55,791 bases of DNA, from positions 1 through 55,791 of the forward strand of contig CAYJPR010000001.1 of assembly GCA_964372075.1 (NCBI GenBank), written 5' to 3'. Position 1 is the stretch's first letter; every line of letters begins with the position of its first letter. The notes beneath the pieces are model-generated. The model searched no databases. It was not told the DNA's origin and worked only from the letters and a program-made list of their open reading frames with translations. The stretch comes from an uncultured Desulfovibrionaceae bacterium. Its GTDB lineage: Bacteria; Desulfobacterota; Desulfovibrionia; Desulfovibrionales; Desulfovibrionaceae. The position numbers were made by a program, and so were the translations under genes. Below are positions 13,417 to 38,573 of this stretch, in pieces.

Positions 13417-14663
13417 TGTTTACAGCCACACAATTACCCGCCGAAGAAGCTAAAATTCGCCAAGAACAATGTCGCCGTCAATTACAAGCCTTTGCCCCAG
13501 AGGCCAGCGGTATGCTCATTTTTTCGCGCACCAACATTTATTACCTTACCGGAACCCGTTCCAATGGTATCTTATGGTTACCCAGTAAGGGAGAGCCTGT
13601 GCTTATGGTACGCAAAGCGCCTGAGCGTTGTCGTCTGGAAAGCCCGCTTAAGCATATTGTCTCCTTTAAATCCTATACGCATATTCCGGAACTGTGTGCG
13701 CAATGCGGTGTTCCCCTCACAGGAGAACAAGGTACCAGCACCGTATTAGGTGCGGAAATGCGTGCTTTGCCTTGGTCGTTGGCAAAAATGCTCCAAGAGC
13801 GTTTAGCCTCTTTTTCCTTTTGCGATACCAGCGCCGTTTTTGATATTGCAAGGCAAGAAAAAACCCCCTTTGAACTACGCCTCTTACGCCATAGCGCCCA
13901 GCAGCACAGCCTTGCTCTGCAAGAGCATATCCCTCAAGCCTTACATGTAGGCATGAGCGAACAAGATATTAGCCACAAAATGTGGGATGTGTTTTTCTCT
14001 CTGGGCCATGGCGGCATGTTACGCCAAGACCGCTATAATAGTGACATTTTTCTAGGAAATATTGCCACAGGAAAAAATGCCCTCTACCCTACCCCCTTCC
14101 GCTCCCCTCTGGGCTGTGTGGGCGAGCACCCTGCCATGCCCTATATGGGCTATGCCGGAAGCGTATGGCAAAAAAACACCGCTCTTATGCTAGACACAGG
14201 CTTCATGTTTGAAGGCTATCACAGCAGCGCTGCCGCCACATACTTTGCTGGTAAAAAAGAACATATACCTACAGCCATGGCTGAGGCTTATGCCTTTTGT
14301 GTGCAGGTTATGGAAGAAGCGCAGAAAAAACTTAAGGTAGGCGTGAATTTAGCTGAAATATGGCATACGGCGCATTCCAAAGCTCAAGCGGCCGGATACG
14401 GTAACACCTTTATGGGTATGGAAGGCAATTATACCCCCATACTGGGTTCCGGCCTTGGACTAAGCATGGAAGAATGGCCTGCCATAAGCGCACAAAATGT
14501 GCTCTGTACCAATCATGCCGTATTAACCCTAAGCCCCATGGTGGCCCTGCCTGAATATGGCATGGTGGGGCTTAAGGCTGTTTTTGAAGTGCAGGGGCAA
14601 AATGCCATTTGTATAACGCCCTATGCAAAAGAAATTATTTGTGTGGAAGAAGCCCCACAATAA
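13416..14663 (+). CDS. M24-family paralog with degenerate metal site (probable pseudo-peptidase)
   Basis: It aligns collinearly with the upstream M24 gene. Ligand positions read LDTG (D kept), HSSAA (D to S), GSGLG (H to S), LSP (E to S) and LKA (E to K). The start overlaps the upstream stop as TAATG at 13414-13418. Confidence 0.8.
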   Translation: MFTATQLPAEEAKIRQEQCRRQLQAFAPEASGMLIFSRTNIYYLTGTRSNGILWLPSKGEPVLMVRKAPERCRLESPLKHIVSFKSYTHIPELCAQCGVPLTGEQGTSTVLGAEMRALPWSLAKMLQERLASFSFCDTSAVFDIARQEKTPFELRLLRHSAQQHSLALQEHIPQALHVGMSEQDISHKMWDVFFSLGHGGMLRQDRYNSDIFLGNIATGKNALYPTPFRSPLGCVGEHPAMPYMGYAGSVWQKNTALMLDTGFMFEGYHSSAAATYFAGKKEHIPTAMAEAYAFCVQVMEEAQKKLKVGVNLAEIWHTAHSKAQAAGYGNTFMGMEGNYTPILGSGLGLSMEEWPAISAQNVLCTNHAVLTLSPMVALPEYGMVGLKAVFEVQGQNAICITPYAKEIICVEEAPQ

Positions 14664-22808: not shown

Positions 22809-23453
22809 TTAGCTATTCCTACGGGCTTGTTCTTCTATACCTTTAGCATACAGCCGGTCTCGATAGGCTTCATCTCGTCTCTTGTTATAATCTATAATTT
22901 GCTGCCATCTTTCCATTTCTTCCTTATCTATTTGCTGCCTGACAGTTAATCTTTCTTTAGGCTTTTCAGGCTCACCCATCAGCTTGTCATAGACATACAG
23001 CAATGCTAATAGACTACCCAGCACAAACTTGATACCGCTTGGCACATCGTCAGACACAAAGGCATATATGATAAGAACAGACAATGATATAAATGAGATA
23101 ATGTAGAAAACAAATTTAACTATACTTATAGTATAAATAGATAATATTTTATTTGAATGTTTTAAACGTGAGGAAAGAGTATATACAACCATACTATAAA
23201 AAACTGTGGTAAACAAAAAAGCGTATAGCGAATCTGGAAGAAATCCTAGTAAAAACAATAAAACATAGGCTACAGCACCGATAGAAAATACTACTTTTTG
23301 AAACTTATCAAGCTGTAGAGACTGTTTAGGAGAAGCGCTATCTTTTTTATAAAAATTATCTTTGGAAATTTTTAATTCTTCCGCATGAAATGTTATGGCG
23401 CCAATAAGCTCTTCACCTCTATTTTGCAAAGCATTATAGTCATTTTTATTCAT
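22809..23453 (-). CDS. hypothetical four-TM membrane protein
   Basis: 214 aa with a soluble N-terminus, four hydrophobic helices and a charged tail. The DNA is very AT-rich (9 G/C in 23101-23160 by my count). It lies 10 nt upstream of the next gene. Confidence 0.55.
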   Translation of the reverse strand: MNKNDYNALQNRGEELIGAITFHAEELKISKDNFYKKDSASPKQSLQLDKFQKVVFSIGAVAYVLLFLLGFLPDSLYAFLFTTVFYSMVVYTLSSRLKHSNKILSIYTISIVKFVFYIISFISLSVLIIYAFVSDDVPSGIKFVLGSLLALLYVYDKLMGEPEKPKERLTVRQQIDKEEMERWQQIIDYNKRRDEAYRDRLYAKGIEEQARRNS

Positions 23454-23525
23454 AACACATCACCCTTTGATTTTTGCTATGCACTATGGCACCGCCTTAA
23501 AAAAGACGGTGCCCGACCTTTCTGC

Positions 23526-24137
23526 TTATTTTTTTCTGAATAATACTTGTGCTGCGGGCACGGGGGCATTATCTGTGGGGCTTTTTATGCGCAGTTCGAA
23601 GCCGCTGCCTCTATTCGCACCGCCAGTAGCTTTCAAGTTTCGGTATGCACCTGTAGCAAATCTAAATTCTACAGGATGTATGCCGGGCTCTAGCTCAACA
23701 TTACCCACTATAGTGCCGTCACCTTCGTAACCATTGGCTACTGATTTTCCATTTACATATATAGCGCTATAATTATCCCACCCTTTTGTGTTTATCATAA
23801 GCACATAATAGCCTTTCTTTTCTGCCACAATATAGGCTTGGCCTTGCCAGCCAATGCTTTTATTCTGAATGGGAAAGCCTAAAGACTTCTGATAATCATT
23901 AACCATGGCGCCAGAACTTTGGGCTTTAAAGCTACCCATAGATGCGGGAGGGAAGTTTGTTACATTCTCACCTTTGGAAAAGGCATAAATATTGGCCACC
24001 CAGCCGGGTTCCAAATCGTTACGCTTAATATCGCCGGATTTTTCTTCCATTTGTGGCACTTCGGAGGCATTTACAGGTGCTATGGCAGCAATCACAAAAA
24101 GAGCAGTCAGCATAAATCCAAAAAATTTCTTTAACAT
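23526..24137 (-). CDS. secreted PA14-like beta-sandwich protein
   Basis: Start moved to ATG 24137 (MLKKFFGF...), which has GGAGA 5 nt upstream. Signal peptide ends in VNASE. The PA14-like pattern reads GW.ANIYAF, IGWQGQAYIVAEKKGYYVLMI, AIYVNGKSV, VELEPGIHPVEFRF, GFELRIKSP. Confidence 0.5.
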   Translation of the reverse strand: MLKKFFGFMLTALFVIAAIAPVNASEVPQMEEKSGDIKRNDLEPGWVANIYAFSKGENVTNFPPASMGSFKAQSSGAMVNDYQKSLGFPIQNKSIGWQGQAYIVAEKKGYYVLMINTKGWDNYSAIYVNGKSVANGYEGDGTIVGNVELEPGIHPVEFRFATGAYRNLKATGGANRGSGFELRIKSPTDNAPVPAAQVLFRKK

Positions 24138-24204
24138 GTTATTCTCCAATTCTACGTTATAGTTACCTATTTCATCGGCAAAAGCTCTTTTGCCGCTCCC
24201 CACC

Positions 24205-25290
24205 CTATTTTTCTATTATGGAATACGTACGCGAACCATCTTTATGGAAGAAGATAACACGTAGACGTATGTTCGCATCATTCACGGACCCATTATCTTG
24301 TAGCACAAGTTCCAACGGTGTGGCCTTACTCACATCAAGACTAAAGGAGGCGTCACCAGCATTGAGTAACTTACCATTATGCATAACCCCCAGCACGCCC
24401 AGTGCCTTGATTTTCACATCCTTGGTTTTCCAAGAGGGGTTTTGGCTGTCGGTGGTTTCTATGCGCACTGCCACCAGCGGGCTGGGGCTTAAAGCTAATA
24501 CTCGAATGCCTGTGTCGGGCTTTTTATCCGGTGCAAAAGCCGTAAGGCTCATGGTGTCCGTGCTCAAGACCATAGGCACAGCACGGCCCGGTTTTCCCAC
24601 TGCAGGCGCTGTGGGGTTCACAGGTTTTTTTTCATTTATTTTGCCCTTGTGTTCAGGAAGCTTAGCCGCCTCGCCTTTCATGGAGTCCCACATGGCTTGT
24701 TGCGTGGCCTGGGGCACGGGCTTCCACTGCGCCTTGGGGCTTATGGCAGGGAAATTTTCCCATTGCCATTTGCCATTGCCAAGATCTTTGGGCTTAGGTT
24801 GCGAGCCAAAGCGTTGAAACTTATTTTTGCCTATTTCCATGCCGGCTGTGCGCACCATAATACGCATATTGCCTGCTATGGCTTGTTGCACAAGATAGGC
24901 CTGCTCAGCACTTAAGTAAAATTCCCATTCAAAGCTTTCACTGGCGTTGGGCTTGATTTCGTCATCTATAGAGATTTTGCTAAGCCAATGCTTCCACTCT
25001 CCATCCTCCGTATCGGCAAAGTAAAAGAGAAATTTTGTAGGTAGTACTGGCGCTGTATGCGTATTTTTCACCGTAGCTTTTATACGCAAAAGTTCATTGC
25101 CACCTTGTGACTTGGCAGTTTCGTAGCCGCCGTCCGTCACTTGCAAAAGATCAAGTACGGCATTGCTATTGGTTTGCGCTGCCAAAACAGCCACATCAAC
25201 CTTTTGCTCTTCTGCAGCCCCTACCAAAACAGGAGCCGCAAGCAAAAAGCCTGTCATGACTAGTCCCAACATATTTTTTTGCATATCCAT
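24205..25290 (-). CDS. secreted two-domain protein, stand-alone paralog of the giant protein's C-terminal module
   Basis: A signal peptide (LLAAPVLVGAAEE) is followed by collinear similarity to residues ~1053-1430 of the upstream 1430-aa ORF (AAQT.SNAVLDLLQVT..., FEWEF, RLRVIFFHKDGSRTYSII). The start may be the third codon (ATG 25284). Confidence 0.8.
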   Translation of the reverse strand: MDMQKNMLGLVMTGFLLAAPVLVGAAEEQKVDVAVLAAQTNSNAVLDLLQVTDGGYETAKSQGGNELLRIKATVKNTHTAPVLPTKFLFYFADTEDGEWKHWLSKISIDDEIKPNASESFEWEFYLSAEQAYLVQQAIAGNMRIMVRTAGMEIGKNKFQRFGSQPKPKDLGNGKWQWENFPAISPKAQWKPVPQATQQAMWDSMKGEAAKLPEHKGKINEKKPVNPTAPAVGKPGRAVPMVLSTDTMSLTAFAPDKKPDTGIRVLALSPSPLVAVRIETTDSQNPSWKTKDVKIKALGVLGVMHNGKLLNAGDASFSLDVSKATPLELVLQDNGSVNDANIRLRVIFFHKDGSRTYSIIEK

Positions 25291-25320
25291 TCCTATTTTT
25301 ACAATTTTAGAAACAGTGTA

Positions 25321-28300
25321 TTAGCGTTGTATTATGGAATACGTACGCGAACCATCCTTATGGAAGAAGATAACACGTAAACGTATTTTAACATTACTAA
25401 TATTACCATTATCCTGCATAACGAGATCTAAAGACACAGGCTTAGAAACATCCACACTGAAAACCGCATCATTGGCGTTGATAGCTTTGCCATCTTGCAT
25501 TACAGATAACACACCTACAGCCTTAGTCTTAACACTTTGTGTTTTCCACGAGGCATTGCCAGCACCAATACTCTCCACACGTACACCCACCAAGGGGCTT
25601 TTGCCATGAGCCAGCACGCGTATGCTCGAATCAGGCTTACCATCGGGCGCAAAGGCGCTGAGGCTCATGGTATCCGTAGTTGTGGCTACAATAACAGCCT
25701 TGCCGGGTTTTTTGGGCGCAGGGGCTGTGGGTTGAGCATCAGTTTTGGCAGACGTAACAGGTGCAGGCTTAACTTCGGCTTTAACTGGGGCTTTTGGCTT
25801 AGCCTCAGCTTTAGCTTCTGGCTTAGCCTCAGCTTTCACTTCTGGCTTGGTTTCAGTTTGAGCAGACGTCTCAGCTTTAGTCGCCACAGTAGCTACTTTA
25901 GGTATACTATTTATGGCACCTCTATGTGCAACCACAGCTGCTTTACTCTTTTTCATGCTCTCCCAAAGAGCCTTTTGTGCATTTTCCTCTGCACTTTTCC
26001 ACTGTGGTATAGGTTTTACGGGTGCAAACTTAGCCAATTGCCACATGCCGTCAGGTAATTGTTTGGGGTCTACCATGGTGCCGAAGCGCTTATACGTAGT
26101 CTTGTTTATAATAGCTTCGGAAGTACGCACCATAAAATGCATTTTTCCGGCTTCCACTTGTTGTAAAAGATACGCTTCTTTTTCATTGGGGAAAAATTCC
26201 CATTCAAAGGTCTGCGTAGCGCCAGGTTTAATATTTTCTGAAGTAACTTTAGTAACCCAAGGCAACCAACCTTGGCCCTCAGCATCTTCAAAAAACATCA
26301 TAAACCTTACTGGCTTTATAGCTTGTTCTGTTTTATTTTGTACGGTTGCTTGCACACGTAATTGCACCGTGCCTTTTTCTGTTTTAAATACTTCATAGGC
26401 TCCGCCAGTAACTTGTAATAAATCCAATACGGCATTACTGGTTGTTTGCGCAGCCACTGAGCGCAAGAGGGCTTTTTTGCTATTGGCAAGCTCTTTTTCC
26501 CGATCAGGGAAACGCTGTCTAAACTGCCCTCTTTGAACAGCACTAAGCTCCCCTACTATGCCTTGCAAAACATATTTCTTATCTTTTTGTACAAAAAGTA
26601 GATTGTTTTTAGCAGTTTCCAGCATAAGCATTTCTGGGGTGAGGATATGCACACTGCTTCTTTCAAGTGTGCTTGGAGTAATTTCCAACTTACCTACAGT
26701 AAACTTACCATGCCCTGATACAGATTTAACTATCTGATCGCTTTGTTCCGTATATACTTTCTTTTCGAAAAGCTCGTTATGACTCTGCTCTTCTAAACCG
26801 CTAGCTCTATCTTGCAGGTTTTTCCACGAAACAAGGTTTGGCACATTGACGAATTGTAAAAATTCCTGACCATTTTTAGTACTCAAAGCCTCCACCATAA
26901 ACATAAGTTTTTGGCGGGGTTCATCTAGCTTATAATTGGCCACAAGTTGCTTCCATGCTTGCGCCATAGCATTGCCACTTGTTGTAAAAATAGAGATGTC
27001 TTTGTTTGGCGGAGCTATAAGCTTGTATGTTCCGTCAAAAAGAACAAAGAGCACAGCCCTATTCCCACTACTTGTAGGTAAGGTGCCAAGTACTATTTTA
27101 TCTTTCTCATTAAGGAAGGAAAAGACGGCTTTTTTCCAAGCTTCAGCATCCCACACGGCCTCTAAGCCGCTAGGAGCCGTACCTGTAGTTATACTTTGCT
27201 TGAAATGCTCTTGCGTAGAGTACAGAGGTGCCAATTGAGAGCGCAATTTACTTCTAAGCCTATCTTGCTCATTCAGTGAAAGTATACTCATGGCAGGTTC
27301 CATATACTTCACCGCCAAGGGAACATTTTTTTCCGTAATGGCCTTTACAATGTTGGCTGTGGCTTCTTGCATTTTTTTCTGCATATCAGCTAGCGATTTT
27401 TGCTTACGGGCTTCTTCCTTGGCTATTTCTTCTTCTAAAATTTTAACGCGAGCATTCACGCCTGCTTGCCAATTTTCAGGACGTTTTAAAGACTCTTCCA
27501 AGGAGGCATGGCGCACGATTTTCCACGCATCATTTTCTGCTTTACGTTGCAGTAAAAGATAAATAAATTGTTCCGTCAAATTCACGACAGCTTCTAAAGG
27601 TGTTGTTTGAACAAAAACAACCTCAGAGAGACCTTTACTTAAAGGCGTCTTGCTCTTCCATTTGCCCGTACTTACTTGCTCTAAAAAAGCCTTCACATCG
27701 GCATTGGTCTTAGCATTGACGGCCATGGCCTGAGCTGTTTTTTCAAGATCGCCATTATCGCGCAAGAAGGAGGGCAAGTCTATATATTGCTCAAAAACTG
27801 TAGGATCTTTGGCTGTATAAGCTTTTTGCAAAGCAGTAAGAACTTCTTGCACAGAGTTTTTTAAAGCAAATTCTATTTCATATTCTTTGACAAGCTCAGC
27901 TAACTTAGTATCCCAATCTTTAGGGCGAGCTAAGCCCCCTGCAGTACTAATTCGCGCTAGCTTCCACGGTTCATCCCCTTTTTTTCTCTCAAAAAGATAA
28001 AAAGAATCATCTTCTCTTAGATGCGTCACAACTTCTAATTCATCCACAAAGAAAATATCTAAATTTTTCAAGCTAAATTTAGACGTCCCATTACGAATTT
28101 CATCAAGAAATTTATTTACGTCAGCATTACTCTTACCATATTTGGCTATGGCGATAGCTGTTTCATTTAAATCCCCGCTATCGCGAATAACCATAGGTAG
28201 TGCAAGGTGTTTTTCAAATACCTCTGGAGCGTTGTTAACTATAGCCTTATTAAGCTCAGCTATAATATCTTTAACTTCCTTCTCCCATTTGGCTTCATTA

Positions 28301-29613
28301 ACTACGTTTTCTTGAGCTTTAGTATACAGTTCTTCAAATCGTTTTGCCAATTCTATATTATATTTTTCTACACTAACTGGAATAGCGCTACTATCTCTCT
28401 CAAATGGAAAATACACACTTTTTTTATTTTCTCTTGACATGTATTGTTCAAACTGTGCATATGACTTAGATTTAACAATCCATTTATTATTTTTCTTAAT
28501 ATGAATAGTATATATACAATTTCTTTCGAAACTTCTAATATCATCATTCAGCCATTTATGGCGCAATTTCTTAGCAGAATCTACATCAGTAAAAGGTGAA
28601 ATAGAAATTTCTTTTACAAGCATAACAGTATCACTTTTCCAAATGACTTCAGTAAGAAAAGATATAGAAAAATTAGCAATATAGTCGCCATATGTTTCAG
28701 ACTTTTTTAAAACATCTGTACCAGAAGCGATATATTTTGACATATTGGATTCATTTTTTATATTAAACTCAAATCCCCTGACCACTTTATCCCAAAATCC
28801 AGCAGTATCATACGCATTTTTATTTTTAATCAACGTAAGATTCTGCCCAGCTAGCCCAAAAGAATCTATGGACAAAACCGCAGCTTCTTCCCATTTCTTC
28901 TCAGCAATGGCTTTAACAATGGCTTCTATTTGCGGCCCCATTTCTTGCAAATACAACTCTGCCCCTTTCTTACGCGCGGCAATGCGGGCCAGTTTATCTT
29001 CCTCTACCTTGCGCGCAGCTTCAGCTCTGTCCATAGCAGCTTTTTTATTACCAGCAAGGCTTACAACGCGCCATTTTTTATCAATAAACGCAAGACCAAG
29101 CACGCCTTCTTGCCCATCGGGCATGGTAGCCACGGCAGCAATAATGCCCTCTTGTTCGCCTACACCCATTTCACCATAGACAAGACTATTCAGCACGTTG
29201 GGGTCAAAGGGTAAGGTGGGACTTTTGTATTTACGGCAATAGTTGGCAAAGTCTCCCGAAGCCACCATACCATCCAAGGTTACAAAAAAAGCATCACTAA
29301 TGGCATAGGATTGCATAGCGCGACTAAGGCCCAAATGACGAGCCCTTTCTATATGCTTACTCGTAACATAAATATTTTTAAGCCATGCATAAGTAGGATT
29401 TTCATGATCGTTCATGTATACGTCTTTAAGGCGTACCCAATACTCCTTAGGCACGCGCTCCATAAAGGCCACATGGTCATTATTTTCAATGGCAGTAACT
29501 AAGGCTTTGACACCTTCTTCAGGTTTTTCACCGCCAATGTTCAAAAAACCCGTGCTCAAAGTGAGCGTTATGCCCACAATGGCAAAAGATAACAATTTTT
29601 GTACCATACGCAT
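25321..29613 (-). CDS. giant secreted or anchored repeat protein: six NTF2/DUF4878-like modules plus a C-terminal two-domain module
   Basis: 1430-aa uninterrupted ORF with an N-terminal hydrophobic signal or anchor. Six modules each open with a helix of type (V/I)..(A/L)..A(I/L)...(N/D)...F and close with a beta-hairpin of type F(V/L)..K....WK(I/L). Coiled-coil linkers separate them. The C-terminal ~380 aa are paralogous to the next gene. Confidence 0.85.
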   Translation of the reverse strand: MRMVQKLLSFAIVGITLTLSTGFLNIGGEKPEEGVKALVTAIENNDHVAFMERVPKEYWVRLKDVYMNDHENPTYAWLKNIYVTSKHIERARHLGLSRAMQSYAISDAFFVTLDGMVASGDFANYCRKYKSPTLPFDPNVLNSLVYGEMGVGEQEGIIAAVATMPDGQEGVLGLAFIDKKWRVVSLAGNKKAAMDRAEAARKVEEDKLARIAARKKGAELYLQEMGPQIEAIVKAIAEKKWEEAAVLSIDSFGLAGQNLTLIKNKNAYDTAGFWDKVVRGFEFNIKNESNMSKYIASGTDVLKKSETYGDYIANFSISFLTEVIWKSDTVMLVKEISISPFTDVDSAKKLRHKWLNDDIRSFERNCIYTIHIKKNNKWIVKSKSYAQFEQYMSRENKKSVYFPFERDSSAIPVSVEKYNIELAKRFEELYTKAQENVVNEAKWEKEVKDIIAELNKAIVNNAPEVFEKHLALPMVIRDSGDLNETAIAIAKYGKSNADVNKFLDEIRNGTSKFSLKNLDIFFVDELEVVTHLREDDSFYLFERKKGDEPWKLARISTAGGLARPKDWDTKLAELVKEYEIEFALKNSVQEVLTALQKAYTAKDPTVFEQYIDLPSFLRDNGDLEKTAQAMAVNAKTNADVKAFLEQVSTGKWKSKTPLSKGLSEVVFVQTTPLEAVVNLTEQFIYLLLQRKAENDAWKIVRHASLEESLKRPENWQAGVNARVKILEEEIAKEEARKQKSLADMQKKMQEATANIVKAITEKNVPLAVKYMEPAMSILSLNEQDRLRSKLRSQLAPLYSTQEHFKQSITTGTAPSGLEAVWDAEAWKKAVFSFLNEKDKIVLGTLPTSSGNRAVLFVLFDGTYKLIAPPNKDISIFTTSGNAMAQAWKQLVANYKLDEPRQKLMFMVEALSTKNGQEFLQFVNVPNLVSWKNLQDRASGLEEQSHNELFEKKVYTEQSDQIVKSVSGHGKFTVGKLEITPSTLERSSVHILTPEMLMLETAKNNLLFVQKDKKYVLQGIVGELSAVQRGQFRQRFPDREKELANSKKALLRSVAAQTTSNAVLDLLQVTGGAYEVFKTEKGTVQLRVQATVQNKTEQAIKPVRFMMFFEDAEGQGWLPWVTKVTSENIKPGATQTFEWEFFPNEKEAYLLQQVEAGKMHFMVRTSEAIINKTTYKRFGTMVDPKQLPDGMWQLAKFAPVKPIPQWKSAEENAQKALWESMKKSKAAVVAHRGAINSIPKVATVATKAETSAQTETKPEVKAEAKPEAKAEAKPKAPVKAEVKPAPVTSAKTDAQPTAPAPKKPGKAVIVATTTDTMSLSAFAPDGKPDSSIRVLAHGKSPLVGVRVESIGAGNASWKTQSVKTKAVGVLSVMQDGKAINANDAVFSVDVSKPVSLDLVMQDNGNISNVKIRLRVIFFHKDGSRTYSIIQR
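25806..25870. repeat. 24-nt tandem repeat (about 2.6 copies) encoding the (AEAKPEAK)n linker in the giant gene
   Basis: The unit ggcttagcctcagctttagcttct at 25806-25829 repeats at 25830-25853 with 2 changes. A partial third unit follows. Confidence 0.8.
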
Positions 29614-29846: not shown

Positions 29847-31040
29847 TTAAAACAATGTTCTTTGTGTTGCATTTTGAAGCGTCGGCAGTTTTGGTTCCAC
29901 AAATTCCCCTGCCTCCACGCCGCGTCCTTCCCAGCTTCGTTCACTAAGGCGCAAAAGAGCTTCTGTGCTGAGTCGCAACATATTCCCCTGCACATTGAAG
30001 GTGCTTTGTGCATGCGCTTTGCCAAAGGTGGTAGTCCCCATGGAGGTGGCGCGTTCATTATCCACCAAGGCTACTATAAAAGCTTCTGCGGCGCTGGCGG
30101 TGAGGTCGTCTTGCCAAAGAATAAGAGGATATGTTTGAAGAAATTTTCCGTCTTTATTGGTGCTGATATATTTTTTCTTGGGCAAAGAATCCGTTTTATT
30201 TTCCCGAATTTTTGAGATACCCAGCAAGGTTCCTTTAGGTAGAAATTCTGCGGCGCAATTTCTTGCAGCCAAAATACTTCCGCCGCTATTGCCCCGCACA
30301 TCCACCACAAGTGGTTGATTTCCTGCTTGTTGTACTTTTGTGATAAAAAGCTTAGTGGTATTTTTATCAAAGTACCAAATGCGAATGCGAGCAAAGCCTT
30401 CATGTTGAATTAAATCCACATGAGGAGGAAGGAATTTTTCTCTTTTAAGGGTAAAAGTAGGAAATGTGTTGTTTCTTTCAACATTTAATGTCAGTGCAGA
30501 GCCTATGGGCCCCCCAAAAACCTTACGAGCAGATTCTATAGAATCCACCCCTGTGAGCACATCGCCTTCTAAAATACCAGCCTTGGCGGCAGGCCCGTTA
30601 GGATAAGGTACACAAACAATTTGCCCTTTTTTGTTTTTCACTAAAGCCATACCTACACTACCAGCATTTTTAGCAGGCAAGCTCATTTTAAATTCAGCGG
30701 CAGAGGTAAAGGTGGCCCATTTGTCAAAACCGTGTAAATAGGCGCGTATTTCGTTAGCATAAATGGGTTGCCATGCCATGTCCTTTGTCATCAGTTCAGA
30801 GCTACTTATCTGTGAATCTTGAACTTTATGCATGGCCTCTTCACCCATTAAAAGAATACTATGAGATTCTTGTGGCGGTGCAAGAGCCGATTTTATGACT
30901 ACTTGCACCACCCTTTCGGTAATGCCCTGCTTTATCGGTTGCTCTACCTGTACAATGGCGCACACAGACGCCGTCGCCACAGCAGATACCATACAAAAAC
31001 TTAGAAAAAATATACGTAAAACAGGCATTACATTTTGCAT
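29847..31040 (-). CDS. S41-family C-terminal processing peptidase (Ctp/Prc-like) with a PDZ domain
   Basis: Signal peptide. PDZ region (GSVGMALVKNKKGQIVCVPYPNGPAAKAGILEGDVL). The motif VVDVRGNSGG is present. Catalytic Ser lies in TASAAE and catalytic Lys in TFGKAHAQ. Confidence 0.85.
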   Translation of the reverse strand: MQNVMPVLRIFFLSFCMVSAVATASVCAIVQVEQPIKQGITERVVQVVIKSALAPPQESHSILLMGEEAMHKVQDSQISSSELMTKDMAWQPIYANEIRAYLHGFDKWATFTSAAEFKMSLPAKNAGSVGMALVKNKKGQIVCVPYPNGPAAKAGILEGDVLTGVDSIESARKVFGGPIGSALTLNVERNNTFPTFTLKREKFLPPHVDLIQHEGFARIRIWYFDKNTTKLFITKVQQAGNQPLVVDVRGNSGGSILAARNCAAEFLPKGTLLGISKIRENKTDSLPKKKYISTNKDGKFLQTYPLILWQDDLTASAAEAFIVALVDNERATSMGTTTFGKAHAQSTFNVQGNMLRLSTEALLRLSERSWEGRGVEAGEFVEPKLPTLQNATQRTLF

Positions 31041-31043
31041 TTC

Positions 31044-31538
31044 TTACTCCATGAGTAAAGCGTCCATATCTTTTTGTAACTCAGCGTACTCTTGATTCAA
31101 TTTTTCAAGATAGGCTTTACGCTCTTCCACATTTTGGGTGGCTGTATTGTTTCTCATTTGTTTTTCAATATCAGTGGCGCGTGTCTCAAGTTCGGTGATC
31201 TTTGCAGCTTGTGTGGTATCTGCTGTTTTACTTTGCGCCAAACGTGTCTTTAAGCTTTCAATATTAGTTTGCATTTCACGCAATTGACCTTGCTGAGCGG
31301 CCACAGTAACCACTCTTTCGCCCACTGCTTTTTTCAAAGCTTCACTTTCTTCGCGTTCTTTGGCTTGTTGCGCTTCAATGGCAGCAAGGCGTGCCTCACG
31401 TTCTTTAATACGTGCTTCATAGGCTTCTGGGCTGTATGAAAACAATCCACCTTTAGATGGATCCGTAGTTGTAGCAGAGCAGCCCACAAGTAAAAGTGCT
31501 GAGGCAAGTACGGTCATAATTCTTTTTTTAGGTAACAT
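31044..31538 (-). CDS. coiled-coil lipoprotein
   Basis: Lipobox LLVGC after a signal peptide, and the rest is heptad-like E/K/Q/A-rich sequence. Start set to ATG 31538 (MLPKK), which has AGGAGAG 5 nt upstream. Confidence 0.7.
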   Translation of the reverse strand: MLPKKRIMTVLASALLLVGCSATTTDPSKGGLFSYSPEAYEARIKEREARLAAIEAQQAKEREESEALKKAVGERVVTVAAQQGQLREMQTNIESLKTRLAQSKTADTTQAAKITELETRATDIEKQMRNNTATQNVEERKAYLEKLNQEYAELQKDMDALLME

Positions 31539-31552
31539 CACATCTCTCCTCA

Positions 31553-32221
31553 TTAAATAGAAACACGCATGGACATATTAGCTAACTTATTAGATTCTTC
31601 ACGCAACTCATCCACTTGTAATTGCATTTTAGCAATTTCATGCTCAATAATGGCAGCTTCGCGTTCACGCTTTTCACTGCGAGCATCAGCCACAACTGCT
31701 TTTTGCGCTACAATAACTTTTTCCATATCTGCAATATAGTTATTGGTAGTCTGCTGCTGATTTGCCAATGTCGCTTGCATTTTCTTCATATCTGAGGCCT
31801 TAGCCGCTTGCATTTTATAGGCGGCGGCTAATTGCTGTGATTGAGCATCCAGCTTCGTCAGCTCTGCTTTCAATTTATCATTATAGGCTGCAGTATTTGT
31901 ATTAGCCGCTTGAGCCTTAGCTATACTATCATCCAGCCAAGCTTCACGTGTTGCGTAATCTTCTTTCTTTTTAGCAACATACAATCCAACACCTGTACCA
32001 ACAAGAGCTCCGGCGCCAGCTCCCACAGCAATCCATCTGGCATTTCCCGTAGCTATGGCGGCAACACCACCTAGTAAAGCGCCAAAGATAGCACCTGCGC
32101 CGGCGCCTTCGCCAACGGTCTGAGCACTATCACTATTAGTGCTTCCATCCGGATTTGTTCTTGCCGCGCAGCCTGATAATACCAACATCATGCACAGCAT
32201 AATTAAAGCAAGGTTTTTCAT
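31553..32221 (-). CDS. glycine-zipper lipoprotein with a C-terminal coiled coil
   Basis: Lipobox VLSGC. Gly-zipper stretch GAGAGAIFGALLGGVAAIATG...VGAGAGALVGTGVGLYV, followed by about 130 aa of coiled-coil-like sequence. Confidence 0.75.
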   Translation of the reverse strand: MKNLALIMLCMMLVLSGCAARTNPDGSTNSDSAQTVGEGAGAGAIFGALLGGVAAIATGNARWIAVGAGAGALVGTGVGLYVAKKKEDYATREAWLDDSIAKAQAANTNTAAYNDKLKAELTKLDAQSQQLAAAYKMQAAKASDMKKMQATLANQQQTTNNYIADMEKVIVAQKAVVADARSEKREREAAIIEHEIAKMQLQVDELREESNKLANMSMRVSI

Positions 32222-32232
32222 AACTCCTCCTA

Positions 32233-33849
32233 TTATTTTAAACTATTTTCATAGTCTTTTCGCCATTTAGGAATATTTGTTCTTTTATTACGTACAAAAT
32301 CTGTATAGTGAGCTTTTATAAGCTGCAGTACAGCTAAGGATGCTGCTATCTCTTCAGGTTTCATACCTTTTTCGGTATAATTTTGTGTTGCTTTTTCCCT
32401 CGCTGCAAAAGCATCTTGGATAAGCTTAGTAGGAAGAGCTTCCATTCCCATAAGGTTAGCACTATATGTTTCTAAAGCCTCATTAATATTAAAGGCAGCT
32501 ACTTGAAAAGGCTTTTCCAAACGCGCATTTTTTTCTTTATCTTCCTTGAGGCGTCCTTCCATATAGGCGTATTTTTCCAATATGGTTCTCAACCTTTGCC
32601 CTACAGAGTGCGTATAGTTCACCCAGGTAGTTGCCGTTCTTATGTCTGCCTCATGCTGAGCTTTTTGCCCTTTTTGCATGCCATCAAGCGCATAAGCCAA
32701 CTCTTGTGCCCAATTTACTTGAATATGCTCATCTTTTGAGAGTTTATTTAAAGATTGAATTCGCTTCATGGCATCAACAAACGATGCTTCTGCTTGATCA
32801 CTAAGCGGAGCCATAGACAGCGTAGCTGGTGTTTGTGGTTGTACGGCGCTGTCCAACTCTTCTTCAAAAGCTTCTTCAATTTCAGCAATGGTTTCTCTGT
32901 CTGTAAGAAGAGGAGCAGATAAGGTTAAACGCATTCCCAAAGTAATTTTGGCATTGGGCTTTACTTCGTTGCCGCGACGTAAAAGATAATAGGGCTCTTC
33001 TTGCCTTTGAGCTGAAAGTAATTTTTCCTCGTTCATAATGTAGGACCCGCCACGACTGGTAAAGCCCCCACTACGTCCTTCATAATACCTGAACTGATAC
33101 TGACTAGAGGTCATTTCTTGTACATTGCCCAACATATCATGCAGGCCCAAAGGGTTAGCCTTAAGTAAGCCTATGGGTTTCATTTTTCCATGAGAAGAGG
33201 TAGGACCGTTAAACCATTCGTAAGCAGCTACTTGGTCATCATAAGGCGTAGCACTTTCAAAAAGAGATTTTTCTACCTTAATGCCGCCGCGCGCAGCAAA
33301 CTCCCATTCTGCTTCTGAAGGTAGTCGTACGAAGCCAGGATAGTTATTGGATTTAGGCAATGCGTCTAAACCGTTAGCATAGAACCACTGATTCAACGCA
33401 TCAATAAACTGTATGGCTTCAAAATAGGTTAGATTGGTCACGGGAAGACTATCTTTTTCAGCACTGGCTTCTTTGTCAGTCAAAGCCGCAGGCAAAGCCC
33501 CCATAACTGCGCGGTACTGCCCGCGCGTAATTTCATACTTACTTAAATAGTACATCCATAAGGGCTCTTCTCCCTCACTAAAAAAACTCCCCCCCACCAT
33601 GACCTTGGTAGGACGCATGCGAAAATTTTCTTCTTCAGCATCTCCCATAATGAAAGACATGCCACCACTATAAGGACTCTCCCCTCGCACTTGAATGGCG
33701 CGAAAAGCAAAACAAGTATCCTTAGGCCCAGGTAAAACCAAGTCACCTTCCATGGGCTGGGGGTTACAAACACTTTTTTCTACAGCCAAAGCCACAGTAG
33801 GCAATGCATAACACAGAGCCAACAGAGCAAAAAACAATAGCTTTTTCAT
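32233..33849 (-). CDS. secreted FGE-sulfatase (SUMF1)-fold protein lacking the catalytic Cys pair, with a helical C-terminal extension
   Basis: Start at ATG 33849 (MKKLLFF) with GAGGAG 5 nt upstream, followed by a signal peptide. FGE-fold motifs are present (RLPSEAEWEFAARGG, HDMLGNVQEM, SRGGSY, LGMRL). No Cys follows GGSY. Confidence 0.8.
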   Translation of the reverse strand: MKKLLFFALLALCYALPTVALAVEKSVCNPQPMEGDLVLPGPKDTCFAFRAIQVRGESPYSGGMSFIMGDAEEENFRMRPTKVMVGGSFFSEGEEPLWMYYLSKYEITRGQYRAVMGALPAALTDKEASAEKDSLPVTNLTYFEAIQFIDALNQWFYANGLDALPKSNNYPGFVRLPSEAEWEFAARGGIKVEKSLFESATPYDDQVAAYEWFNGPTSSHGKMKPIGLLKANPLGLHDMLGNVQEMTSSQYQFRYYEGRSGGFTSRGGSYIMNEEKLLSAQRQEEPYYLLRRGNEVKPNAKITLGMRLTLSAPLLTDRETIAEIEEAFEEELDSAVQPQTPATLSMAPLSDQAEASFVDAMKRIQSLNKLSKDEHIQVNWAQELAYALDGMQKGQKAQHEADIRTATTWVNYTHSVGQRLRTILEKYAYMEGRLKEDKEKNARLEKPFQVAAFNINEALETYSANLMGMEALPTKLIQDAFAAREKATQNYTEKGMKPEEIAASLAVLQLIKAHYTDFVRNKRTNIPKWRKDYENSLK

Positions 33850-33869
33850 GCACACTCCTCTACGTAGAA

Positions 33870-35741
33870 CTATTCGTCGCGCAAACTTTCAGACGCTTCA
33901 ATTTTAAGTAAACGTGCAGCCGCAGCAAGCCCGGCTAACACAGAGGCCAACAAAGCTAAAAGCACAGCCCAAAGTTGTTGTTGCCACTGTAATCGGCACA
34001 AAACCTCACCAGGAAGGATAAAATCTTGTGCTAACATATTCATATAAAAAGCGAGGACATGAAAAAGAAGAAGGGAAAGAAGCATGCCAAGCCCTGTCAT
34101 GACAATACCAGCTGTCAAGGGAAAGGCACACAAATTGGAACCATGTATACCTAAAAGACGCAACACAGCAAGAGCACGCCGTTTACGCTCTACACTAGCA
34201 TACAATGATGCCAAAAGACATATAACACCGCCCAAAACGGCAGCACTGGCAATAAGACCTAAAATCAGTGTAAGATACCTATCCATACTGCGAACACGTT
34301 CTATGTCAGCCATACGAGTTTTAACTATCACATTAGCAGCTTCAAGTTGCGCAGCCAAAGGAGCTACATCATCCAGTGACCGTGCATACATACGAAAACG
34401 TGAATAATTTTGTCTTCCCAATAGAATTTGTACTTCGTCCCTATCCTCTGCTTTGATAGCAAGAGTTTCTAAAGGGCGTGAATACAAAAGGTTTAAACGC
34501 GCCACAAGTCCGGGGGCTACCACGGCTTGCCCTACAGGTATATCAGCGTGGGGCAACACATGTAATGGCAAGGTCAAGCTCTCTTCATCTTGCGCCTTAA
34601 AAGTAGCTATCGCTTTGTTTTCAGATAATTTTTCTGCATCCTGGGGTGACAGTAAGAGCAGGGCTGGAACTTTTTGAACATCATGCCAAGTAACAGCGGA
34701 CCATGCTGCGTCTGTAGGACTTATACCTTGCCACGCCTCTGTAGGCCAAAGAGATGAAGCATGTACTTGTAAAGAAAGCTTCGTACCTTGCCCTTGTGGG
34801 CCCTGTAGAATAAGCTCTAAAGGAGCGTCCACTGGACCTGCCATAGGAACAAAAGCCCACTCTTGGCCACGTAAAACATTACGCAACTCTTGAAGCTTAA
34901 ATAATGAAACGGGACTATTCCCAGCCTCCAGCTGTAAAGAATGCCAACCTTCTTTTGTCTGCACTACATTTTCTTGTAAGCGTACAAAGCCCGTTCGTTG
35001 ACGCAACTGAGCTATAGCAATAGGACTTAAAGACTCACGCGTATACAACACGCCACCATAAAAAACAGGATAAGCTAAAGGCTTTTCCCCCGGCCAGCCA
35101 AAAGATTCAACACTAAAACCATCTCGAAAAGCCTCCATATGCTCTAATTGTTCCAGAGGGATGAAAGCTAAATCGCGCCCTGAAGCTTGCTGCGGCAAAA
35201 TACCACTAACCACAAATTTGCGTGAAGCTTTTTCAATGCCCCCGCCTTTTTTTTGGCGAGAAATAGTGATTTCAATACTATCTGAAGAAGAAATTTGAAG
35301 TTTTTGAGCTAAGGAAGCCGTGAGTACGCAGGCATCATTGTCTGGAATTTGCACGCGATAACTCTGTAAGAGCCAATCCCCCGCTCCTGTGGGCTGCATA
35401 TCAGCGCGCACCATTTTGTCTGATTGAGCAGGGTTGCTAAAAGAGCCCCCCACGCCTAATTCGCGCGTTTTTGGCACCACAAAGCCCACATGTGCATTGT
35501 TTCTCCACGTTTCAAACCACGCACTATCAAACGTAGACGTTCCTTGAGGAATAACTTCCATATATGATGGATCGTTAATCATGCGCTGACGCATAACCTC
35601 CACGACGCCATTTTTTAACCCAAAAAACAACAGTAATGGTAAAGCTATAGCGGCTACCGTAAGCACAAGGCAAACTGTCATGCGTGCATCATGGCGCAAA
35701 TCCTTACAGGCCATCCAAATTACAGAAAAAAACTCACGCAT
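33870..35741 (-). CDS. FtsX/MacB-type (type VII) ABC permease with an oversized periplasmic domain
   Basis: TM1 near the N-terminus, then a soluble insert of about 440 aa, then three C-terminal TMs with the FtsX-like pattern (ERKRRALAVLRLLG). Start ATG 35741 overlaps the ATPase stop by 8 nt. Confidence 0.85.
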   Translation of the reverse strand: MREFFSVIWMACKDLRHDARMTVCLVLTVAAIALPLLLFFGLKNGVVEVMRQRMINDPSYMEVIPQGTSTFDSAWFETWRNNAHVGFVVPKTRELGVGGSFSNPAQSDKMVRADMQPTGAGDWLLQSYRVQIPDNDACVLTASLAQKLQISSSDSIEITISRQKKGGGIEKASRKFVVSGILPQQASGRDLAFIPLEQLEHMEAFRDGFSVESFGWPGEKPLAYPVFYGGVLYTRESLSPIAIAQLRQRTGFVRLQENVVQTKEGWHSLQLEAGNSPVSLFKLQELRNVLRGQEWAFVPMAGPVDAPLELILQGPQGQGTKLSLQVHASSLWPTEAWQGISPTDAAWSAVTWHDVQKVPALLLLSPQDAEKLSENKAIATFKAQDEESLTLPLHVLPHADIPVGQAVVAPGLVARLNLLYSRPLETLAIKAEDRDEVQILLGRQNYSRFRMYARSLDDVAPLAAQLEAANVIVKTRMADIERVRSMDRYLTLILGLIASAAVLGGVICLLASLYASVERKRRALAVLRLLGIHGSNLCAFPLTAGIVMTGLGMLLSLLLFHVLAFYMNMLAQDFILPGEVLCRLQWQQQLWAVLLALLASVLAGLAAAARLLKIEASESLRDE

Positions 35742-36486
35742 ATATTCGCCCCTGAGTACTGGGAATATGTGTTGTAGGCCATTGCAAGGTTGAACGCACA
35801 TGACCATGCTCATTGGTAGCTAAAGAAAATTCTGCCCATGCATCGGCATGCTGATACATAAGCTCTTTATCGTGGCTAACTATAATGGCAGCAGCACCAC
35901 TCTCTTGCACAACTTCGCGGAAAATACGACAAATACTTTGTGCAGCACTACTATCCACAGCGGCGGTGGGTTCATCGGCAAGAACCAAGGCAGGACGGTG
36001 AATTAGTGCACGAGCAATAGCCACCCTTTGCCTTTGCCCTCCTGAAAGGTGCTGAGGCTTCTTGTCCACTTGATTGGCTATGCCAAGCCTATCCAATAAT
36101 ACATCGAGCCACGCAGCGCTTTGCGCCTCGGAAATACCAAGAAGCCTTGCTGGAAGCAAAATATTCTCACGCACACTCAAAAACGGTAGAAGTCCACCAG
36201 ATTGTAAAACATAACCTAATTTCTGTTTTCTTACACAGGCCAGCGCCCCTGCACTGGCCTGTGTAAGCGAAATAGAGTTTTCATCTGCATATTGAAGTGA
36301 CATCTGCCCTTGCTGAGGGCGCAAAATGAGTGCCAGAATATCTAACAGAGTAGATTTTCCACACCCACTTTGCCCTATTACCGCTATAACATCTCCTGCT
36401 TTCAGGTGAAGTAGCGGCACCGACAATGTAAACACTGCGCCGTTTTTTTCGCGTGTTAGCTCTATGTCACGTGCAGATAACAACAT
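35734..36486 (-). CDS. ABC transporter ATP-binding protein (MacB/LolD-like)
   Basis: Walker A GQSGCGKST, signature LSGGQRQRVAIARAL, Walker B LVLADEPTAAVD and H-loop VSHD. Confidence 0.92.
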   Translation of the reverse strand: MLLSARDIELTREKNGAVFTLSVPLLHLKAGDVIAVIGQSGCGKSTLLDILALILRPQQGQMSLQYADENSISLTQASAGALACVRKQKLGYVLQSGGLLPFLSVRENILLPARLLGISEAQSAAWLDVLLDRLGIANQVDKKPQHLSGGQRQRVAIARALIHRPALVLADEPTAAVDSSAAQSICRIFREVVQESGAAAIIVSHDKELMYQHADAWAEFSLATNEHGHVRSTLQWPTTHIPSTQGRIYA

Positions 36487-38573
36487 TAGGGCAAAAGCTC
36501 CAAAGATATAGGTGTTACATAATCATCCGCAGCATCACCTTGATTTAAAGCAACCCATTGATCCGGTGTGCTATGTATGCTCTGATAAGCTGCTACCTTA
36601 GCGCGTAAACTTTCAATAAATTGATCTTGCTCATCAGGACCAAAACTTTCCCAAAGTTCTGAAGACATGGTCATAATTTGACTTTCATAAGGAAGACCTT
36701 GTAGGAAAGCAGGCACTAATCCGGACTCTTGTAAGCTTTTTGCTTTAGCCAACTGATCAGCATTACGTGCCGCAGCTGCAGAGACGCTTTGCAAAGAGGT
36801 AAAGAAATCGCCACTACCCATTTGTGCTTCAGCTCCTGCTTCAATAATTTCATTAAGCATCACAGCTAAACTATCTAATTGACGCTTAGAAATGAGCAAA
36901 CGCACGTCTAAGGATTGAATGGAAGCATCGGTTAAATCTTTATCCGTTACCCACGCTTCGATATCATTGGGAGCTTGAGTTTCTGTAGCTCGTCCAAGCC
37001 ATGTAACCATACCCGCTTGTAAGCTTTTTTGTATTTGCTCTGATGCAGATTTACCATCTGAGCTTTTAACTTCTGCAGTATCTGCCGCAGGAGTAGCTGC
37101 AGCTGGCGGAGTTGGCGCAGCAGAAGTTTGTGTCGCCGCAGCAGCATTTCCTTCTTTTAAAGCTACCTCAAGAACCTTTGCAATTTCTGTAACATAGGTA
37201 TTTGAAAGCTTCACAAAGTTCAGTCTATCGCCGGAGGGTACTTGTAAAAGCACGGCACTATCAGTACCCTTATTTGTTGTAAGCCCCTTAAATTGTCTTT
37301 CAGCTAATTTGTTATATTTTTTACGAATTTTTGGCTGAACATGAATACCGAAAATACTTACATTGTTTTCAGATGCCAAAGTGCGTAATGTTTTTTCATC
37401 TAATTTAGTACTGTTCCACTTATGACCGCTTTCGTGTGAGGGTGCATCACCCACAAGAATAATAATACGTAAAGCGCCATCACGCCATGCAGACTTTTCA
37501 ATGGCGGTTTTTACCCCTGCAAACATATCCTCGTGTACATCCACGGAGTCTGTTGTGGTTTCTTTAACTTCTTTAAGGGTAGTCACAAAGGTGTCTAAAG
37601 GTTGTAACTCAGGAGTAAAGTTCTTGGTAAGGTAGCCTATATCTTTAATTTCTTCTGAATCTCTATACGCTACAATGCCAAAACGAATGCGATCTGCCAC
37701 TTCTTTCTTTTCTGCCAAAGACTTACTCATGGCTTCTAATGTATTGCGAACCTCTTCAATATAAGGTTGCATACTGCGTGTGGTGTCCATAACCCAAACA
37801 ATGTCAAATTTAATATCTTTTTTCTGCGCCGCTACGTCACTTTCTGTGGTTGTGGCAGCCTTCAAAGCTTCGTCATTTTTACGGATATCAGCCGATTTAT
37901 CACGCTTAGCATCTTCCTTACCACTCACAGCCGCCAACAAAAGTTTGCGACCTTCATAACTTTCCATTTGTATTTTCTTATGTTCCAAAATAGGCAACAA
38001 ATAGAATTGCTTTGTGATATCAATAGCAAGCTTTGGTTCTACAGAAATAATAGGAAAATCGGCAGGTAGCGGGGTTGTAGCTGCATTATCTATGGCCGCA
38101 TACAATGTATTCACATCTTGCGTACGCTTTTCTGCAGTTTCTTTTAGTAAAGCATCAAGACTTTCTTCTTCCTCAAACATGAGCACAGATTTACGTCCCT
38201 GAGGGTGACTAAACGCTAAGCACATGGTTTGCTTCCACTCAAAAACATCAGAAGCCTTCATCCATCCTGCAATAGTGCCTTTTTCGTCAGTACCAACTTC
38301 ATACCAGCCGGTACCAGTTTCACGGGCTTCACCACCTGGGCGTGTATAAACAAAATAAGATTTAAAGACAGGAATTTGCCCGTCAATAGCAGTAGTTTCA
38401 GAAGCATCCTTATACAGCTTCGCTTGAGGACGAGCCAAAACCCTCAAAGAAAGAGGTGAACCTTCCTCAATGCTAACAGGTTTTTTCTCTGCGGCTTGCA
38501 GGTCAGAGAACAAAAGCGTCTGCGCTACCATTACACATAACGCAAACAACACTACACGGAAAAAACGTTTCAT
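36486..38573 (-). CDS. secreted SH3b-like plus von Willebrand factor A (vWA) domain protein
   Basis: Signal peptide (LFSDLQAAEKK). The N-terminal segment is SH3b-like (GWYEVGTDEKGTIAGWMKASDV). The vWA domain has an intact MIDAS (VMDTTRSM ... GDAPSHE). An Ala/Pro/Thr linker precedes a helical C-terminal domain. GAGG lies 5 nt before the ATG. Confidence 0.85.
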   Translation of the reverse strand: MKRFFRVVLFALCVMVAQTLLFSDLQAAEKKPVSIEEGSPLSLRVLARPQAKLYKDASETTAIDGQIPVFKSYFVYTRPGGEARETGTGWYEVGTDEKGTIAGWMKASDVFEWKQTMCLAFSHPQGRKSVLMFEEEESLDALLKETAEKRTQDVNTLYAAIDNAATTPLPADFPIISVEPKLAIDITKQFYLLPILEHKKIQMESYEGRKLLLAAVSGKEDAKRDKSADIRKNDEALKAATTTESDVAAQKKDIKFDIVWVMDTTRSMQPYIEEVRNTLEAMSKSLAEKKEVADRIRFGIVAYRDSEEIKDIGYLTKNFTPELQPLDTFVTTLKEVKETTTDSVDVHEDMFAGVKTAIEKSAWRDGALRIIILVGDAPSHESGHKWNSTKLDEKTLRTLASENNVSIFGIHVQPKIRKKYNKLAERQFKGLTTNKGTDSAVLLQVPSGDRLNFVKLSNTYVTEIAKVLEVALKEGNAAAATQTSAAPTPPAAATPAADTAEVKSSDGKSASEQIQKSLQAGMVTWLGRATETQAPNDIEAWVTDKDLTDASIQSLDVRLLISKRQLDSLAVMLNEIIEAGAEAQMGSGDFFTSLQSVSAAAARNADQLAKAKSLQESGLVPAFLQGLPYESQIMTMSSELWESFGPDEQDQFIESLRAKVAAYQSIHSTPDQWVALNQGDAADDYVTPISLELLP

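Follow-up and report, generated by a model that had tools for sequence, protein, structure and literature searches.

A 57-nt repeat shared by two diverged tandem paralogs of an uncultured Desulfovibrionaceae bacterium is very probably a short gene conversion tract

How do two neighboring genes that have diverged to the saturation of their synonymous sites come to share a nearly identical stretch of 57 nucleotides at their 3' ends? The question is raised by a pair of tandem paralogs on contig CAYJPR010000001.1 of an uncultured Desulfovibrionaceae bacterium (assembly GCA_964372075.1), of which we analyzed positions 1 to 55,791, referred to here as the window. Both genes lie on the minus strand; the upstream member of the pair encodes a protein of 1430 amino acids (the giant gene, W_giant), and the downstream member encodes one of 361 amino acids (the small gene, W_small). 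An original prediction, made from the letters of the sequence, had noticed an abrupt rise in identity at the 3' ends and offered recent gene conversion, a recombination anchor shared by cassettes, or a constraint at the nucleotide or RNA level as its cause. Our analysis indicates that the 57-nt block is very probably an ectopic (interlocus) gene conversion tract that was copied from the giant gene into the small gene.

RESULTS AND DISCUSSION

A duplicated C-terminal module

The giant gene (25321..29613, minus strand) is an open reading frame (ORF) for a secreted protein of unassigned function. A spacer of 30 nt (25291..25320) runs from its stop codon to the start codon of the small gene (24205..25290, minus strand), which encodes a Sec-type signal peptide followed by a copy of the giant's C-terminal two-domain module. 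In the giant gene this module takes in residues 1042-1430 and the stop codon (25321..26490, minus strand), as delimited by local alignment to the small protein, and residues 26-361 of the small protein align with giant residues 1043-1430, the last 388 residues of that protein. The original description of the 361-aa gene as a signal peptide plus a copy of the giant's last ~380 residues is thus borne out. By inspection of the sequence, residues 1-25 of the small protein resemble a Sec signal peptide, and each of the two is a complete gene with its own start codon and signal peptide. The paralogous modules are 52% identical in protein and 59% identical in nucleotides over 335 aligned codons, and the sole long gap in their alignment corresponds to 53 residues of a Lys/Ala/Pro/Glu-rich linker present in the giant only. 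The low-complexity linker sequence KPEVKAEAKPEAKAEAKPKAPVKAEVKP (25759-25851, minus strand), which is likewise rich in Lys, Ala, Pro, and Glu, lies between the giant's two C-terminal domains, is not present in the small gene, and is highly variable in length across giant orthologs. A blastp comparison of the giant protein with itself returned no internal repeats at E < 1e-3. To judge from these alignments, a module of the giant's C-terminus was tandemly duplicated long ago and gained a signal peptide to become the small gene.

Giant orthologs of 1302 to 1543 aa are found in six other loci of Desulfovibrionaceae metagenome-assembled genomes (MAGs), and all known relatives of both genes come from uncultured Desulfovibrionaceae MAGs. 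Six related loci derive from study ERP123703, for whose accession a literature search returned no paper; one further assembly and one Logan run also carry the family. The same pair of giant and small genes is present in locus L001 (CAYJDE010000002.1), where the ortholog of W_small (L1_small, at 10001-11083) shares 78% protein identity with it and has saturated synonymous sites. The closest relative of the window is locus L005 (CAYJHD010000001.1; 84% identity for an S41 peptidase, 80% for the gene downstream of the pair, and 68% aa and 73% nt identity for the giant), which carries no small gene. The small protein was found on one contig only in the protein collection searched, a word-indexed protein search for relatives gave just 3 and 4 matches, and scans of JGI metagenome contigs, one with the protein and one with the block pattern, added no further relatives or strains.

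An outlier block at the 3' ends

The block occupies codons 341-359 of the small gene (IRLRVIFFHKDGSRTYSII; 24214..24270, minus strand) and codons 1410-1428 of the giant gene (25330..25386, minus strand, found as a match to the 57-nt pattern). The two copies are identical at 55 of 57 nt and at 17 of 19 codons, with CTA/TTA and AAA/AAG as the only differences, and in the 30 nt directly upstream a recount from the codon table gives 18 identical positions; the coordinates and both counts reported originally, synonymous sites included, were correct. A repeat listing with a 12-nt seed missed the 57-nt pair, while the pattern search recovers both copies and found no third copy in the 55.8-kb window. 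In sliding windows of 19 codons, nucleotide identity reaches 0.965 in the block, compared with ~0.74 in the best window clear of the 3' end and 0.59 overall. The proportion of synonymous differences (pS) follows the same course, being lowest in the block (0.15), with the next lowest nonoverlapping window at 0.39 and a median of 0.75. By both measures the block is a clear outlier and the predicted jump in identity is sharp.

At the 156 residues conserved outside the block the paralogs use the same codon 73 times, against 71.0 expected from the codon usage of the window (pS 0.77), and because this count matches random expectation we regard the synonymous sites of the pair as fully saturated. Inside the block, codon usage predicts 8.1 shared codons and 17 of the 19 are the same (Poisson-binomial P = 1.4e-5), in keeping with the earlier argument that protein-level selection alone would be insufficient. 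No stretch of the whole protein family is more conserved than the block peptide, and this conservation explains why the blocks match in amino acids; their match in codons we ascribe to conversion, the sole explanation that we accept for it.

A mosaic small gene

When W_small is compared site by site with its ortholog L1_small and its paralog W_giant, 256 sites overall are ortholog-like and 103 are paralog-like. Within the block the 16 informative sites divide into 15 that are giant-like and 1 that is ortholog-like; the last two codons of the small gene hold four ortholog-like and no paralog-like sites, and the upstream flank is predominantly ortholog-like. Testing for gene conversion tracts by the site patterns of these three sequences gave a permutation p of ~1e-5. 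Codon 340 (AAC) still has a small-type third base and codon 341 (ATA) a giant-type one, which places the upstream breakpoint between these two bases. Downstream, the return to small-type sequence comes between codon 359 and codon 360 (GAA), and the two breakpoints together set the tract length at 52-57 nt. The 3' boundary of the tract is marked by an unconverted small-type tail, GAA AAA TAG (Glu-Lys-stop; 24205..24213, minus strand), for which the small gene of L001 has GAA AAA TAA and for which six of the seven giants carry CAA/ACA CGN/AGA (QR or TR).

Compared with the L005 giant, W_giant shows no excess of paralog-like sites (p = 0.66), and the blocks of these two giants are identical at 54 of 57 nt. 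Since W_giant has no cluster of paralog-like sites relative to the L005 giant, the transfer ran from giant to small and was nonreciprocal. The scan was repeated reciprocally for other conversion tracts in the rest of the module and in the L001 pair, and none was significant, with no other p < 0.04. In L001 the blocks of the two paralogs are not homogenized: they share 68% nucleotide identity with a pS of 0.75 and differ at five residues (IRLRVIFLHEDGTRTYAII in the small protein and ARLRVIFFHKDGSRTYSIV in the giant). The mosaic structure of W_small and the unhomogenized pair of L001 both support the gene conversion that was originally proposed, although the word "recent" in that proposal needs the qualification given below.

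The sequence of events that we propose would begin with an old tandem duplication of the giant's two-domain module, which with a signal peptide would have produced the small gene, and the copies would then have diverged to synonymous saturation. Later, in the lineage of the window, 52-57 nt at the 3' end of the small gene would have been overwritten nonreciprocally by giant sequence. Such a conversion would have switched four residues of the small protein to giant type (L to F, E to K, T to S, and A to S) and would have carried over the giant's synonymous codon choices, leaving the last two codons (EK) and all upstream sequence small-type; two synonymous changes would since have been gained by the small copy. 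Synonymous divergence (dS) in the block is ~0.16 between W_small and W_giant (2 synonymous differences) and 0.27 between W_giant and the L005 giant. Counted in nucleotides, the blocks differ at 2 positions between W_small and W_giant, at 3 between W_giant and L005, and at 5 between W_small and L005, and W_giant has no unique change. Homogenization may thus be about as old as the split between the window and L005 or older, or it may have been renewed since. The conversion is recent only relative to the saturated duplication and is of the same order as the split from L005.

Homogenization of tuf genes and of rRNA operons provides well-known cases of bacterial interlocus gene conversion. Ectopic conversion between bacterial paralogs has also been described for the PE/PPE and PE_PGRS genes of Mycobacterium tuberculosis (PMC12046097, PMC13061034), where PE/PPE conversion leaves a mosaic recipient in which a dense cluster of donor-type variants is bounded by recipient-type flanks (PMC12046097). 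W_small resembles these genes in being a mosaic produced by a nonreciprocal short copy between paralogs. It differs from them in that the paralogs are very diverged (59% nucleotide identity with synonymous saturation) and the tract spans just 52-57 nt, in that the tract is confined to the segment under the strongest protein constraint, and in that the evidence comes from a comparison of MAGs between species and not from strains or long reads.

A giant-small fusion in the closest relative

The giant gene of L005 is giant-type up to and including AAG (block codon 10) and small-like from there on, ending in GAA AAG TAG, while all six other giants end in QR or TR. The spacer that follows it aligns over its full length with the spacer downstream of W_small (L005:9180-9320 region). 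In the window the two block copies contain perfectly identical runs of 22 and 27 nt in direct orientation, and the switch point of the L005 giant falls within the 27-nt run. For Escherichia coli RecA, the minimal efficient processing segment is 23-27 bp. The L005 giant is therefore, as far as its sequence can tell, likely the product expected of an unequal crossover between the blocks that deleted the small gene. Because the small gene is kept in the more distant L001, its loss in L005 is the parsimonious reading. A relocated small gene elsewhere in the L005 MAG was considered and rejected, since the 302-aa candidate on another contig (L009) is an ortholog of an L2_255-type paralog. In its arrangement of giant body, shared block, small-type tail, and the small gene's downstream spacer, the L005 giant is like the fusions left by deletions between direct repeats; unlike documented repeat deletions, it is known from a single short-read MAG contig, in which an assembly skip across the repeat is possible, and its ancestral state is deduced from phylogenetic distribution. 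The block probably served as a substrate for homologous recombination and was used once as a crossover site.

Alternative explanations

The block could instead be an element at the nucleotide or RNA level whose synonymous sites are under selection, such as an mRNA 3' structure or a regulatory or protein-binding DNA site. It does include an inverted repeat, short and imperfect (ATACGT...ACGTAT), just 3 of its 57 nt differ between W_giant and the L005 giant, and the 122-nt 3' end of the giant gene (25285-25406) folds slightly better than its shuffles (z = -2.26, with 5 of 200 as good). Against this, the L005 similarity is within expectation for that pair (binomial P ~0.06), the small-gene copy shows no folding advantage over its shuffles (z = -0.74), and no Rfam 15 family matched at gathering score anywhere in the window. 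Nine further family members, six giant orthologs included, keep the block peptide in the form R(L/M)RV(I/V)F(F/Y)HKDGSR(T/N)YS and vary its codons freely, so that nucleotide identity among their blocks is no more than 56-81%. Even L4_1311, whose peptide differs from that of the window by a single residue (M for I at the first position), is only 81% identical to the window block in nucleotides, the other members ranging from 56 to 79%, and the L001 pair has a block pS of 0.75 as noted above. Such an element is largely refuted by the sequences of L001, L004, L010, L011, and L012, and with folding that is unexceptional throughout (z of -0.7 to -2.3) we consider the constraint put forward in the original prediction highly improbable. 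Chance combined with protein-level selection and shared codon bias has still less to recommend it and can be practically dismissed: the block peptide is indeed the family's most conserved segment and both genes belong to one genome with the same codon preferences, but with 17 identical codons against the 8.1 predicted, chance is rejected at P ~1e-5 by two independent tests, and the switch of four small-gene residues to giant type relative to the ortholog, with sharp boundaries on both sides, does not follow from it.

A dedicated recombination anchor, by which a programmed cassette system would swap or delete C-terminal modules and so vary the secreted proteins, gains some appeal from the crossover inside the block that the L005 fusion suggests and from the many family members that have the same C-terminal domain. 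We nevertheless give it only a slim chance, because the window holds only two block copies, both in complete genes, and scans of 30 ORFs there turned up neither a recombinase or invertase nor a reverse transcriptase. Nor is the block common to family members of the same genome (67% nucleotide identity for L5_1059/L5_1459 and 72% for L4_1194/L4_1311) or homogenized in the L001 pair, and a single deletion event is permitted by any direct repeat. Of the anchor first proposed, what survives is thus the apparent use of the block as a crossover site in L005, and not the cassette system. Two specific systems were rejected as well: a diversity-generating retroelement, given that the 30 ORFs contain no reverse transcriptase domain and that the differences upstream of the block affect all bases and codon positions, and silent-cassette antigenic variation of the pilE/pilS or vls type, given two full genes with no partial cassettes and an L001 pair without the block. 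An assembly artifact, whether a chimeric join that created the block or a repeat collapse that removed the small gene from L005, deserves mention because all loci are third-party annotation (TPA) contigs of short-read MAGs with SPAdes-style NODE names, and because an assembler can skip a loop between two long identical repeats and the 1.1-kb leftover contig can be lost in binning. We rate it as very improbable. Small-type sequence flanks the block on both sides, which would need two switches within less than one read length; the exact repeats are just 22 and 27 nt, shorter than the largest k-mer typically used by metaSPAdes; and a collection of 5.8 billion protein clusters yielded no orphan small-type protein, only those of the window and L001.

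Several points weigh against gene conversion itself. The label-shuffling test across all windows, a cruder test than those above, reaches just p = 0.018 when taken alone. The converted state is present in one genome only, all sequences come from short-read MAGs, and the polarity relies on a single ortholog of the small gene (L001) together with the family-wide comparison. If the block had evolved fast in L1_small, some of the giant-like sites would be L001-specific changes, although an unusually fast L1_small would still leave the identity at synonymous sites unexplained. The 3 codon differences between the blocks of W_giant and L005, against ~6.6 expected, are not significantly few, and a mild local reduction of the synonymous rate is possible. 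Finally, the unconverted L001 paralogs have no exact run of more than 14 nt in common, so that the initiating homology was very short for a classical RecA-dependent exchange. With copies 1.1 kb apart, we infer homologous or template-switch repair, and the initiating event probably used very short homology, by way of template switching or a rare homeologous exchange.

Genomic surroundings

The window is ordinary chromosomal DNA, with genes for EF-G, ribosomal protein S1, catalase, FeoB, ComEC, PTS enzyme I, and two-component systems. Upstream of the giant gene lies a conserved cluster on the minus strand (29847-38573) that encodes a VWA protein, an ABC ATPase, an FtsX permease, an FGE-sulfatase lipoprotein with weak resemblance to GldK/PorK, a glycine-zipper lipoprotein, a coiled-coil protein, and an S41/PDZ C-terminal processing peptidase (29847-31040); the giant is the last large gene of this cluster and is followed by a gene for a protein of ~204 aa. 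Gene order from the ABC ATPase to the giant is the same in L012 (L012:1-9909) and L013. L005 likewise has the S41 peptidase, the giant, and the ~204-aa gene, with the peptidase just upstream of the giant's neighbor. Proteins with the shared C-terminal domain may be served by this cluster as an envelope or secretion apparatus.

The gene downstream of the pair encodes a conserved secreted protein of 203 aa (23526..24137, minus strand), with 80% identity to its counterpart in L005 and 61-67% to those in L001, L004, L010, and L011. It comes after the small gene in all related loci that have one and after the giant in those that do not. The mechanical ORF (23526-24203, minus strand) begins at a GTG adjoining the stop codon of the small gene; because the ATG at 24137 (MLKKF...) corresponds to the start of the orthologs in five other loci, the true gene is probably 23526-24137, with a signal peptide. 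Between the small gene's stop codon and this gene lies a 7-bp hairpin, GGCAAAA GAGC TTTTGCC (24177-24194, minus strand), and comparable hairpins occupy the same place in L005, L001, and L004, with weak covariation support; a promoter and terminator scan of 23400-25500 gave nothing informative. Elsewhere in the window there is a second tandem pair of paralogs, two M24 (Xaa-Pro) peptidase genes (12181-13416 and 13416-14663, plus strand) with a common 67-nt stretch that is 78% identical (12869-12935 versus 14110-14176). In L012 a gene for a recombinase of the phage integrase family (L012:12646-13563) is located ~2.7 kb downstream of the giant ortholog, and the window has no equivalent.

An uncharacterized C-terminal domain

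The C-terminal domain of both proteins (~135 aa; 24205-24615 and 25321-25725) belongs to an uncharacterized family. An exhaustive profile search gave 72 representative clusters. In the 39 with E < 1e-30, proteins of 136-1796 aa, the domain is almost always at the extreme C-terminus, and in more distant members of the family it is internal and repeated. The small protein matched no Pfam or NCBIfam family at E up to 0.01, and the giant protein had no match above cut-off in either collection, the one subthreshold match of its module being Transglut_C (17.3 bits versus 26.6). Among nine other family members scanned, seven had no Pfam match at E up to 0.001, and the matches of the other two contained no significant stretch. 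An AlphaFold2 model of the small protein is of low confidence (predicted local distance difference test [pLDDT] of 52.6) and suggests two β-sandwich domains with a disordered linker, the last two β-strands of the C-terminal domain being encoded by the block that was overwritten. Foldseek searches of this model against the PDB gave weak, generic matches to Ig-like β-sandwiches only (ApaG/DUF525-like and transglutaminase C-terminal domains; query TM of ~0.2), from which no function can be assigned.

In Bacteroidota, the C-terminal domain (CTD) of type IX secretion system (T9SS) substrates is a sorting and secretion domain common to many cargo proteins. The domain described here is similar in being a conserved, β-rich region of ~135 aa that forms the very C-terminal end of many large secreted proteins not otherwise related to each other, and several of its loci adjoin an S41/PDZ C-terminal processing peptidase and a GldK-like FGE-sulfatase lipoprotein. 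It is unlike the T9SS CTD in that no NCBIfam or Pfam model passes its cut-off and the host is a member of the Desulfovibrionaceae, so that the likeness, with a structure model at the low confidence given above, is one of analogy only. It is conceivable, if rather unlikely, that the domain, which ends in RLRVIFFHKDGSRTYSII, is an undescribed sorting or processing tag read by the neighboring machinery and that the converted allele was fixed because the last β-hairpin must match the recognition partner of the giant, in which case the conversion would reflect selected coevolution of cargo tags and would not be neutral. Readers of such a tag may include the S41/PDZ C-terminal processing peptidase, the GldK-like FGE-sulfatase lipoprotein, the FtsX/ABC pair, and the glycine-zipper lipoprotein.

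Implications

Interlocus gene conversion and repeat-mediated deletion are both well known, and the pair described here is a new, cleanly resolved instance. It offers a worked example of how otherwise saturated paralogs can still reveal a very short conversion tract, with its direction and boundaries fixed to within a few bases, and of how the same repeat was apparently the crossover point for gene loss in a sister lineage. Annotations should accordingly not present the 57-nt repeat as a regulatory or RNA element. The uncharacterized family of large secreted proteins with this C-terminal domain, together with the S41-peptidase operon, may be the more interesting lead.

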